Assembly: GCA_018657385.1 (NCBI GenBank)
Contig: JABHXF010000028.1
Span: forward strand, 1,472-65,471
Direction: 5' to 3'
Origin: Candidatus Woesearchaeota archaeon
GTDB lineage: Archaea > Nanobdellota > Nanobdellia > Woesearchaeales > DSVV01
Length of the DNA stretch: 64,000 nucleotides
Shown: piece after piece, positions 16,485 through 54,016 of the stretch
Layout of the letters: each line of letters begins with the position of its first letter
Numbering within the stretch: the first letter of the stretch is position 1
The notes under the pieces: generated by a model
The model's input: the letters and a program-made list of their open reading frames with translations, nothing else
Database searches by the model: none
Told to the model about the DNA's origin: nothing
Position numbers and translations under genes: made by a program

Positions 16485-16589
16485 TCACATAATTACTATA
16501 ACTATAGTTATTGCAATAATCATAAACCAACTAAAACTCATTTCTGCTCCTGTTTCTCTTTTGTAAATCATACTTGCTTTTCCTTCCAT
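16485..16589 (-). CDS. Membrane micropeptide (34 aa), paralog of 52979-53089
   Basis: Sequence MEGKASMIYKRETGAEMSFSWFMIIAITIVIVIM, with GGAGG 9 nt upstream. It shares its MEGxAS start, C-terminal TM segment and a conserved promoter block with the second copy. Confidence 0.4.
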   Translation of the reverse strand: MEGKASMIYKRETGAEMSFSWFMIIAITIVIVIM

Positions 16590-52098: not shown

Positions 52099-52848
52099 TT
52101 ACTTAGTCATATCCCAGAAATAATCAAAGTATTGCTTCATTGAATCTGCAACTTGTTGATTTATTATTTCTACTGCCATTGCAATTGGTGATTGAAGAAA
52201 GATTACTATTGTGTCTTTGTAAATTAAAAACATTGCTGGAGTTGTTAAATCAACTGGCATTCTTCTTGCATTAACTCCTTTGTAAGAAGTTCTGTTTTTG
52301 ATAATATTATTTTTTGTATCCTTATTGAATAATAATTTACATTTAATACCTGTTTTTATTCTTTTTACATGATCTCTTTGCCAATAAAGATGTTGTTCTT
52401 CTGGTTGAGATGCAGGAATTCCTAAGTAATAGTAGAATTCTCCTTTCTTTAATTTTTGATAAGTATGTTCATGTGCTGTTCTAAGACCTTTGAAGCCTGT
52501 GTAAATGTTAGCTTCACTCTTTGGCTGCATTTTTTGATGTAATAGTAATTGTGGAAGCATTTCTTCTACTTTTTTCTTATTTTCTTTTAACAGTATTTCC
52601 CTGTTTTCAATAAATTCTAATATTTTTCCAGGTGAAGAAGCTTGAAAATACTTTGTTTTATCTTTTGTTATGTATGAAACTAATCCTTTTTGCATGAGTT
52701 TTTCAAGAATTTGATATATAATAGATCTGGCTATTCTAGATTTTTCTATAATTGGACCTGTTGTTGATGATCCAAGTTCTAATAACGCTAGATAAACCTT
52801 AATTTCTCCATCTGTAAGTCCTGCTTCTTTTAGGTGTGATATGTCCAT
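52099..52848 (-). CDS. TrmB-family transcription regulator (paralog 3)
   Basis: 249 aa. LKEAGLTDGEIKVYLALLELGSSTTGPIIEKSRIARSIIYQILEKLMQKGLV is the TrmB winged-helix domain. Confidence 0.75.
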   Translation of the reverse strand: MDISHLKEAGLTDGEIKVYLALLELGSSTTGPIIEKSRIARSIIYQILEKLMQKGLVSYITKDKTKYFQASSPGKILEFIENREILLKENKKKVEEMLPQLLLHQKMQPKSEANIYTGFKGLRTAHEHTYQKLKKGEFYYYLGIPASQPEEQHLYWQRDHVKRIKTGIKCKLLFNKDTKNNIIKNRTSYKGVNARRMPVDLTTPAMFLIYKDTIVIFLQSPIAMAVEIINQQVADSMKQYFDYFWDMTK

Positions 52849-52931
52849 GTTTCTTTATTTAGATGTTTTCTTATATAAAACTTGTTATTGTTGTACCAGT
52901 AGTGGTGGGCAAATATTTATATAACTAAGAA

Positions 52932-52978: not shown

Positions 52979-53089
52979 ATGGAAGGAAATGCAAGCATAG
53001 ATTACAACAAAAAAATGGATTATGGATTGAGCATTCCAACAGCAACTACCATTTTAATTGTAATTTTGCTAATATTAAAAATAATGTAG
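52979..53089 (+). CDS. Membrane micropeptide (36 aa), paralog of 16485-16589
   Basis: Sequence MEGNASIDYNKKMDYGLSIPTATTILIVILLILKIM, with a GGAGGG Shine-Dalgarno sequence upstream. The stop TAG overlaps the next ORF. Confidence 0.4.
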   Translation: MEGNASIDYNKKMDYGLSIPTATTILIVILLILKIM

Positions 53090-53097
53090 TGATAAAA

Positions 53098-53751
53098 ATG
53101 AAAAAAGCAATAACATTAGTAGCATTACTTACATTATTATCACCATATGCAAATGCAGAAGAAAAAAGTGAAGATAATAAAGTAGAAACATCTGGTTGGT
53201 TCCAAACATTGATTGGATATAACATTACAAGTAATAATCCTGCAATTAGATTTCAAAGTGGTTATAATATAGAAGATTTTGGCTTTTATGGAGAAGTTAA
53301 TCTATTACCAGAAGGAGAAGACACTGCAGAGATTGATGGCGTCTATACAGAACTAAGAGGTTGGTATGATGTTATTGAAAATTTAGGATTAATTTTAGAA
53401 TTTCAGGGAGGAAGTGGAATAGATGATTTGTTAAGAGGTGGATTTATGTTATATGGTGGAGTTGGAGATTTATCTGGACATTTAAGATTGATGCCAGTAA
53501 GTTCAACTGGAAAAGCAGAACAAATTGGAGCATATGCAATGCTAAAACTTCCAGTTGGTTTTTCAATAGATTTATTCGCAGAATACAACTTTGATTATGA
53601 AGGAGAAACAAATAACTTATACACAGAAGTTGGTGTCTATTGGAACATTGCAGGTGGATTACATATTGGAAGCCATACAAGAATGTTCTTTGACTTCATG
53701 GAAAACATGCAAGATTTACAAGAGTTAGGTGTGTTAAAGTATGAGTTTTAG
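53098..53751 (+). CDS. Secreted beta-strand-rich protein with outer-membrane-barrel-like features
   Basis: The signal peptide is MKKAITLVALLTLLSPYANA. About 12 alternating-hydrophobic strands follow, and the sequence ends in the aromatic KYEF. The track ORF starts at a GTG at 53089. Confidence 0.55.
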   Translation: MKKAITLVALLTLLSPYANAEEKSEDNKVETSGWFQTLIGYNITSNNPAIRFQSGYNIEDFGFYGEVNLLPEGEDTAEIDGVYTELRGWYDVIENLGLILEFQGGSGIDDLLRGGFMLYGGVGDLSGHLRLMPVSSTGKAEQIGAYAMLKLPVGFSIDLFAEYNFDYEGETNNLYTEVGVYWNIAGGLHIGSHTRMFFDFMENMQDLQELGVLKYEF

Positions 53752-53809
53752 ATTTTTTATTTTTTCATTACAAAACATTTATATAAACCCAAACTAATAC
53801 AATATTAAC

Positions 53810-54016
53810 ATGTGCTTAGCAATACCAGGTAAAATAATAGAGATTAAAGAAGATAAGGTTATAGTAGAGTATCCTGGAGAAAATAGAGAAGTTCTTAATG
53901 CAGGATTTGATTTAAAGCAAGGAGAATATGTGTTTGTTCAGGCAGGTATTGTTATTCAAAAGATTCCAGAAGATGAAGCAGTTGAAAGTTTGAAAGCTTG
54001 GGCAGAAGTTAGTTAA
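53810..54016 (+). CDS. hypC: Hydrogenase assembly chaperone HypC/HupF
   Basis: 68 aa. MCLAIPGKIIEI carries the invariant N-terminal Cys2 motif. Confidence 0.85.
   Translation: MCLAIPGKIIEIKEDKVIVEYPGENREVLNAGFDLKQGEYVFVQAGIVIQKIPEDEAVESLKAWAEVS

Follow-up and report, generated by a model that had tools for sequence, protein, structure and literature searches.

Within a 64,000-nucleotide (nt) stretch of contig JABHXF010000028.1 (hereafter, the window), a marine DPANN archaeon of the Woesearchaeota carries a gene, at positions 53098-53751 of the forward strand, whose product has the appearance of a small outer-membrane porin. Based on comparative sequence analysis and structure prediction, we consider it likely that this protein is a native, Sec-exported, single-chain transmembrane-type β-barrel of 12 strands with a charged lumen, and that it is conditionally expressed under the control of the TrmB-like regulator encoded next to it. 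To our knowledge, porin-type barrels are not known from archaea, and they serve as textbook markers of bacterial outer membranes, mitochondria, and plastids.

The open reading frame (ORF) spans 654 nt and encodes 217 amino acids (aa) followed by a stop codon. The initial annotation of the region had delineated this ORF correctly but reported 218 aa, the stop having been counted in. The ATG at 53098 is the start retained in the orthologs (MKKAITL or MRKAITL), and an alternative GTG start at 53089 has one base in common with the TAG stop codon of an upstream 36-aa ORF, as had been read from the sequence at the outset. The predicted signal peptide, MKKAITLVALLTLLSPYANA (53098-53157, forward strand), displays the n/h/c organization expected of a Sec substrate when inspected by eye: an MKK n-region, an 11-residue hydrophobic core, and an A-N-A motif, after which cleavage is predicted, followed by EEK. 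This organization is conserved among orthologs, in agreement with the Sec-type signal proposed earlier; the cleavage region ANA-EEK is identical in three of them, and an N-terminal hydrophobic leader is present in 45/45 members of the barrel family. The mature protein (53158-53751, forward strand) would then comprise a short acidic linker (EEKSEDNK...) and the 12-stranded barrel, as delimited by AlphaFold2 (AF2), Foldseek, and the strand dyads, up to the terminal GVLKYEF and the stop codon. The guanine-plus-cytosine (GC) content of the gene is 32%, compared with 29% for the genome and the contig, so that its AT-richness indeed matches the surroundings. In a separate observation, the signal peptide ends in a lipobox-like Cys ([LVI][AST][GAS]C) in 9 of the 45 family members (P0015, P0024, P0025, P0027, L009, L015, L019, L020, and L106); given this motif, some barrels of the family may be lipid-anchored.

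Structure prediction, suggested when the gene was first annotated, gave a 12-stranded barrel. With 12 homologs in the alignment, AF2 reached a predicted local distance difference test (pLDDT) score of 82.9 and a predicted template modeling (pTM) score of 0.76, with all five models scoring at least 76; with three sequences the pLDDT was 60, yet the 12 strands were already in place. The strands (residues 29-42, 47-58, 61-71, 79-93, 96-105, 108-122, 125-135, 140-151, 155-166, 173-185, 188-199, and 204-216) are 10-15 residues long and are connected by loops of just 2-7 residues. Structural comparison of the model with the PDB using Foldseek revealed 71 matches at E < 1e-3, and the best 50 of these 71 are all transmembrane β-barrels, the top ones being 12-stranded. 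Among them are KdgM (4pr7; E 4e-6, template modeling [TM] score 0.69, root-mean-square deviation [rmsd] 4.0 Å), PcoB (7pge; TM 0.59/0.64), NanC (2wjq; TM 0.59/0.61), and Tsx (1tlw; TMq 0.64, rmsd 4.6), as well as the β-domains of intimin and invasin and the barrel FapF. The matches in the viral structure library are phage-encoded outer-membrane barrels, and the nearest structures overall are thus those of bacterial and phage outer membranes. No lipocalin, avidin, GFP, or LolA-like fold is present among the best 50 of the 71 PDB matches.

The predicted strands are strongly amphipathic. When all 12 strands are divided into their two faces at the AF2 strand limits, the outward face consists mainly of Leu, Phe, Ile, and Val and includes only 4 charged residues among 75 positions, whereas the inward face is polar, with 23/75 charged; the same split into a hydrophobic and a polar face is seen in the barrel-family averages. 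The amphipathicity itself can be read from the sequence independently of AF2. The period-2 amplitude within strands corresponds to z = 5.3, with 0/2000 shuffled sequences reaching the observed value, and the protein ranks third among 1010 ORFs of the host genome for strand alternation. The roughly 12 alternating segments described in the initial annotation are thereby recovered both as strands and as a periodic signal. The positions that are nearly invariant in the family (R51, E/Q53, E85, R87, E101, R113, Q142, Y175, E177, and R195) all point into the lumen. At the C-terminus, the LGVLKYEF end with its terminal Phe, already pointed out in the initial annotation, turned out to be a family feature with the consensus G-hydrophobic-K-Y-x-F: counted from the end, Phe occupies the last position in 27/45 members, Tyr position 3, Gly position 6, and hydrophobic residues positions 5 and 7. 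As judged from sequence, this motif fits the classical pattern of the bacterial outer-membrane β-signal. A soluble β-sandwich that merely mimics the pattern had been raised as an explanation of the alternation; because of the hydrophobic outward face, the membrane barrels returned by Foldseek, and the β-signal-like C-terminus, we regard such a sandwich, or a small soluble barrel, as unlikely.

The best structural likeness is to the KdgM/NanC porins of Gram-negative bacteria (PF06178; 4fqe, 4pr7, 2wjq, and 8xua), with which the predicted fold superimposes at TM 0.69 for 4pr7 and 0.61 for 2wjq. These porins share with the archaeal protein a single chain of 12 strands, a mature length of ~190-215 aa, short turns, a signal peptide, and a C-terminal aromatic residue, but no sequence relationship was detected, either with PF06178 or by a profile search of PDB sequences. 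They may further differ in their lumen, which carries basic tracks in KdgM and NanC, porins specific for acidic sugars, as opposed to the conserved mixture of Arg and Glu, plus Gln and Tyr, predicted to face the lumen here, and the archaeal barrel is set apart by a host without an Omp85 match, a TrmB-like partner regulator, and loops that are short on both sides. The nucleoside channel Tsx and the copper channel PcoB have the same predicted 12-strand fold, again with no sequence similarity detected. The Tsx channel is lined by aromatic together with Arg and Glu residues. This chemistry resembles the conserved Tyr, Arg, and Glu positions of the archaeal lumen and provides a lead only. Tsx is larger (251 aa) and has long loops, in contrast to the short-looped barrel described here. 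Taken at the level of the model, the protein has a small-porin-like build but would fall outside every described porin family, and its organism does not look diderm.

The barrel gene belongs to a family that, as far as sequence comparison can tell, is native to these archaea, accessory, patchy, and fast-evolving, rather than chimeric or recently bacterial. The host bin measures 1.54 Mb (90.4% complete, 0.5% contaminated), and the gene sits mid-way in a 67-kb archaeal contig of matching GC content. The archaeal markers recognized in the initial annotation hold up: the window encodes LonB, SepF, TrmB, HypC, and a group-3 NiFe hydrogenase, and the closest named relatives of its LonB come from Candidatus Woesearchaeota metagenome-assembled genomes (MAGs). 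The closest homologs of the barrel are 78% and 58% identical. The 58%-identical ortholog (P0003) lies in the same neighborhood on a JGI contig of 38 kb and again on further, independent contigs from ENA and JGI, with the shared gene order LonB, SepF, ZPR1, TFIIS, ..., PEP-utilizer, TrmB, barrel, hydrogenase. The barrel gene and its regulator are therefore syntenic across independent JGI, ENA, and NCBI assemblies, and because the same neighborhood recurs in them, both chimerism, which had been a concern, and mis-binning are excluded. As a side observation, many MAGs titled "uncultured Methanosarcinales archaeon (binchicken...)" encode a LonB that is 70-75% identical to that of the window, as near as the named Woesearchaeota, and from sequence the taxonomic labels of these MAGs look wrong.

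A phmmer search of 1.84 billion representative sequences retrieved 20 proteins at E < 1e-3, of which ~18 are of ~210 aa, carry a signal peptide, and mostly end in Phe. The search returned no bacterial homolog, and every readable genomic context was archaeal, with neighbors such as RNA_pol_N, PAC2, LonB, and TrmB; one member is annotated from a "Nanoarchaeota archaeon" MAG. A family profile detected the gene, always as a single copy, in 20 of the 301 genomes that represented the same order. In a phylum-wide sample the family was again single-copy and occurred in 16 of 401 genomes, 14 of them from the same order and two from another order of the same class. The family is thus carried by 4-7% of the Woesearchaeales/Nanoarchaeia genomes sampled. 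Neither the same-genus genome G001 nor any of the 27 other same-family genomes searched carries it; in G001 the PEP-utilizer orthologs are just 28-36% identical, and this genome is too diverged and rearranged for an empty-site comparison. The GC content of the family loci ranges from 30 to 61% and tracks that of each host genome. Close-alignment profile scans gave no match in genome contigs or viral contigs and just the known ortholog in metagenome contigs, and a word-indexed profile search retrieved five family members.

Divergently from the barrel gene, the window encodes a 249-aa TrmB-like winged-helix regulator (52099-52848, reverse strand), identified by its orthologs and by a match of residues 6-68 to the Pfam family TrmB (PF01978; E 1.7e-15, 57 bits against a cut-off of 25.6). 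Its nearest solved relative is TrmBL2 (5box), a weak match at E 1e-3, and no Pfam match to the C-terminal sugar-binding domain of TrmB was obtained at E <= 1. A full-length TrmB-like ortholog (~250 aa, 29-88% identity) divergently adjoins the barrel gene in 16/29 family loci, with a spacer of typically 60-140 bp between barrel and regulator genes; three further loci have tandem Lrp/AsnC-type regulators and one has an HTH_3 protein. Since the host genome encodes 13 TrmB-like paralogs among ~1500 genes, adjacency by chance would be expected at ~2%.

The intergenic region holds two divergent TATA boxes of the form TTTATATA. One (52872-52879, reverse strand) lies ~25 nt from the ATG of the regulator gene, is kept in the orthologous locus L002 and other family loci, and would direct a transcript that is probably leaderless; the other (52916-52923, forward strand) would serve the micropeptide/barrel unit, and most family loci likewise have this box after the operator. 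Between them lies a near-palindrome, TACCA-GTAG-TGGTG (TACCAGTAGTGGTG, 52894-52907), which is identical in L002 and which we consider the putative binding site of the regulator. In support of this notion, TACCA-N4-5-TGGTA dyads are found in 7/7 cases, namely the window and the six loci with a regulator sharing 57-88% identity with that of the window, and a second subgroup of regulators is accompanied by AACTCTC-N6-8-GAGAGTT, with a recognition helix that differs accordingly. Because the operator palindrome co-varies with the recognition helix, which is good comparative evidence, the neighboring TrmB-like protein most likely controls the barrel promoter and its own promoter directly. The regulators are better conserved than the barrels, with a mean identity over all pairs of 40% versus 25%; between the window and its closest regulator group, the regulators are 57-68% identical and the barrels 20-24%.

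This arrangement recalls the TrmB/TrmBL2 proteins of the Thermococcales (3qph and 5box), with which the regulator shares the winged-helix domain and a TrmBL2-like length (~250-265 aa). The classical TrmB layout, a divergent gene with a palindromic operator at a transport operon (TrmB literature), is the same as here. The sugar-binding C-terminal domain of Thermococcales TrmB, by contrast, was not detected in the regulator, and the family has expanded to 6-13 paralogs per Woesearchaeal genome, every paralog having an operator to itself; from its sequences, it looks like the main family of specific regulators in these archaea. As an observation on the wider family, other TrmB-like subgroups have perfect or near-perfect palindromes of their own between divergent TATA boxes, for example TGTCG..CGACA, GGTGGTA..TACCACC, and GTGTCTAATATTAGACAC. 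Together with the TACCA..TGGTA and AACTCTC..GAGAGTT sites, such palindromes were located at 52894-52907 of the window, elsewhere in the host genome (C27 ~42590, C55 ~11260, and C59 ~20400), and at loci L006, L010, L011, L015, L021, L105, and L106.

Between the promoter and the barrel gene lies the 36-aa leader ORF MEGNASIDYNKKMDYGLSIPTATTILIVILLILKIM (52979-53089, forward strand), with the strong ribosome-binding site GGAGGG upstream. It is one of five MEG[KN]AS(M) micropeptides in the host genome, which measure 32-37 aa, carry a hydrophobic tail, and all follow a GGAGG-like motif of Shine-Dalgarno type; the members lie at 52979-53089 (forward strand) and 16487-16589 (reverse strand) of the window and at C27:42694 (forward), C55:11178 (reverse), and C59:20324 (reverse). 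A TrmB-like paralog is encoded divergently from every one of them, with the micropeptide as the first ORF on its side, and the micropeptide stop codon often overlaps or adjoins the following start codon. The genes that follow the five all differ: the barrel, a HAD hydrolase, an HD protein, a carbamoyltransferase, and a 128-aa ORF with a 263-aa β-rich protein. We asked whether the micropeptide belongs to the barrel module and rejected this idea, given that the micropeptide is absent at the orthologous barrel locus L002 and that its paralogs precede unrelated genes. When searched for exactly, the MEG[KN]AS start was seen a single time in the same-genus genome and in 0/39 other relatives. Judged by this distribution, the micropeptide would belong to the TrmB-controlled promoters of this genus, and the MEG[KN]AS ORFs may encode leader or regulatory peptides for operons under TrmB control.

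The 263-aa protein is the second exported-looking β-rich protein of this genome (C27:43163-43954; L109:2264-3055), with an N-terminal hydrophobic segment and the end ...SLSVGFRANF. Its gene lies 3′ of the MEGKAS micropeptide and the 128-aa ORF and is convergent with a tandem Lrp/AsnC regulator, which is 34% identical to the regulators flanking the barrels in L008, L012, and L016. Homologs occur in 7/61 relatives (77% identity in G001), and there is no Pfam match. Its inclusion in the 217-aa barrel family was considered and dropped, with no homology detected either by hidden Markov model (HMM) searches or by hhalign.

Downstream of the barrel gene, a T-rich tract, TTTTTTATTTTTT (53752-53772, forward strand), abuts the stop codon and is followed by the next TATA box and hypC. 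By analogy with the known use of oligo-T terminators in archaea, the tract is a probable archaeal terminator; a scan for bacterial-type terminators found no hairpin 3′ of the gene. In the sister species (L002/L003 2583-5543 and the 38-kb JGI contig), the barrel and hydrogenase genes are separated by a pair of radical-SAM/BATS genes, of which one carries a fused HupF/HypC domain, and the corresponding place in the window is taken by just a stand-alone hypC (53810-54016).

Several observations weigh against the interpretation of the protein as a regulated transmembrane barrel. A search against outer-membrane-protein families, proposed in the initial annotation, yielded no significant curated model: Pfam and NCBIfam scans returned no significant family for the barrel protein or for 20 family members, and the sub-threshold Pfam matches were confined to single members (Phage_OMP at 0.002, PorP_SprF at 0.02, OMP_b-brl at 0.057, DUF5020 at 0.067, and Autotransporter at 0.073). 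KdgM (PF06178) matched neither the barrel protein (E <= 1) nor the 20 members nor the six-frame translation of the host genome, and Gcw_chp (PF09694; TorF-type putative porins) had no match in the host genome (E <= 1) or among the 20 members. Profiles built from 3 and from 20 sequences of the family found no PDB sequence at E <= 10. The insertase family Omp85/BamA (PF01103) was not found in the host genome, which is 90.4% complete, and the same search was positive in seven diderm control genomes. Woesearchaeota are assumed to be single-membraned, which would leave the barrel with no known home or insertion route. On the structural side, the AF2 alignment was shallow, at 12 sequences, and the conserved mixture of Arg and Glu in the lumen could engage in a closed network of salt bridges of the kind found in small barrels that do not conduct, instead of lining an open channel. 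With regard to regulation, 9/29 family loci, mostly the weakest matches or contig ends, are without an adjacent regulator, and the divergence of barrel and regulator is weakly correlated (Spearman 0.15, p 0.11), for which reason we dropped the idea of a co-evolution beyond adjacency and operator co-variation.

Under our preferred reading, the Sec pathway would export the barrel precursor, the signal peptide would be removed, and the mature chain would fold into a 12-stranded barrel of about the size and shape of KdgM, NanC, and Tsx, with a hydrophobic belt facing lipid and a lumen lined by the conserved Arg, Glu, Gln, and Tyr residues. Transcription would start from the archaeal TATA promoter, and the TrmB-like regulator would bind TACCA-N4-TGGTG between the TATA boxes, such that the barrel would be made just under a particular signal. 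The product may have an accessory role at the cell surface, as a small channel or membrane anchor that inserts itself, an interpretation suggested to us because the gene is single-copy, patchy, fast-evolving, and individually regulated and lies in a genome without Omp85/BamA. Its site would be a lipid layer other than the energized cytoplasmic membrane, either the membrane of a partner cell at contact or an unrecognized archaeal outer layer. A β-pore-forming toxin, in which each monomer contributes one or two hairpins, was also considered and rejected, since the prediction places the entire mature chain in a single, complete 12-strand barrel and leaves no soluble domain.

Where the barrel would reside, and to what end, can be weighed from the same evidence. 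Of the placements we ranked, insertion into the membrane of another cell comes first, and even this we hold to be possible rather than probable. In line with the pore-forming or host-interaction protein of an episymbiont proposed in the initial annotation, the protein would here be a symbiosis factor that inserts itself into the partner membrane at contact and provides a small channel for the uptake of metabolites, for instance in the manner of Tsx (nucleosides) or KdgM (sugars). DPANN archaea are commonly episymbiotic, and the patchy, accessory distribution and the lower identity of the barrels than of the regulators are typical of surface or host-facing proteins. The tight regulation suggested by operator and regulator, the minimal build with its short loops, and the fact that self-insertion needs no insertion machinery of the producer's own also speak in its favor. 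Against it stand the lack of a known host for this lineage, the absence of conserved adjacent secretion, adhesion, or targeting genes at the family loci that were read, and a genome of 1.5 Mb with a hydrogenase, which is not extremely reduced; moreover, delivery of single-chain outer-membrane-type barrels from outside into another cell is not known, and the known pore-forming toxins use many subunits. We find it improbable that the barrel instead serves as a diffusion channel in an unrecognized outer lipid layer of the archaeon itself, diderm-like as in Ignicoccus or Altiarchaeum. The signal peptide, the 12 amphipathic strands, and the β-signal-like C-terminus are the formal hallmarks of an outer-membrane protein, and the unrelated 263-aa protein (...GFRANF) is a second exported β-rich candidate in the same genome. 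A few archaea are double-membraned, and a porin-like relative may exist in Altiarchaeales (PMC12228718). A core envelope component should nevertheless be widespread, and this gene is single-copy, occurs in just ~4-7% of related genomes, and is absent from G001 and the 27 same-family genomes; in addition, the host genome contains one or two barrel-like candidates in all, at most one besides the 217-aa protein, Omp85 was not found, and a dedicated repressor, as proposed here, would imply conditional rather than constitutive use.

Ranked level with an outer layer of the archaeon's own, and to us just as unlikely, is a role as an exported barrel that is not a pore, namely a carrier of lipids or hydrophobic molecules, an anchor embedded in the surface layer (S-layer), or a closed receptor or adhesin barrel. 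Such a role would require no membrane to span, none being known, and would suit a lumen whose acidic and basic residues could form a closed polar network; the lipobox-like Cys of 9/45 members suggests lipid anchoring in some lineages. It is difficult to reconcile with an outward face about as hydrophobic as that of true membrane barrels and with the listed Foldseek matches, which are all membrane barrels and include none of the soluble folds named above. Furthermore, a barrel of 12 strands without a plug domain has a lumen too wide for a hydrophobic core. Finally, a fold and a C-terminal motif of this kind are otherwise marks of bacteria, and the sub-threshold matches of some members are to bacterial outer-membrane families, which might point to bacterial DNA. 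The contig would then be mis-binned or chimeric, or the gene would have passed very recently from a Gram-negative bacterium to the archaeon. This explanation, also entertained in the initial annotation, is effectively refuted by the mid-contig position in a GC-matched archaeal contig, the low contamination of the bin, the gene order repeated in independent assemblies, the uniformly archaeal contexts, the tracking of host GC by the family loci, the archaeal TATA promoter, regulator, and conserved operator, and the failure of the sequence searches to detect a bacterial homolog. Beyond the barrel itself, a broader proposition, which we advance tentatively and with considerable reserve, is that ultra-small archaea (Woesearchaeales and their kin) natively make self-inserting porin-type barrels, independent of the β-barrel assembly machinery (BAM) and under TrmB-type control, and place them outside their own cytoplasmic membrane, in an unseen outer membrane or in a partner membrane, as metabolite conduits.

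The outer-membrane pore Ihomp1 of Ignicoccus is α-helical. A possible relative of the PopA superfamily in Altiarchaeales is mentioned in a single sentence (PMC12228718), and these two are the sole printed hints known to us of pore proteins in an archaeal outer layer. Both come from documented double-membrane archaea, which the Woesearchaeota are not, and PopA-type barrels are oligomeric, lipid-trapping porins, whereas the barrel described here is predicted to be single-chain. Apart from the PopA hint for Altiarchaeales, we found no description in the literature of porin-like barrels in Woesearchaeota or DPANN archaea. The co-variation of operator and regulator and the family of leader ORFs are further contributions of the present analysis.

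A native, regulated, and conserved family of predicted archaeal barrels implies one of three things: an unseen envelope layer, pores that are put into other cells, or a non-membrane use of the fold. If the barrels are indeed placed outside the membrane of their own cell, then outer-membrane-type barrels would extend beyond bacteria and organelles, and this protein would offer a direct molecular handle on the cell-cell interactions of DPANN archaea. The pairing of a TrmB-like regulator with the operator TACCA-N4-TGGTG could in turn reveal the inducing signal, and hence the physiological role, in organisms that cannot yet be cultivated. A single protein, small and easy to express, is enough to test each of the three conclusions.

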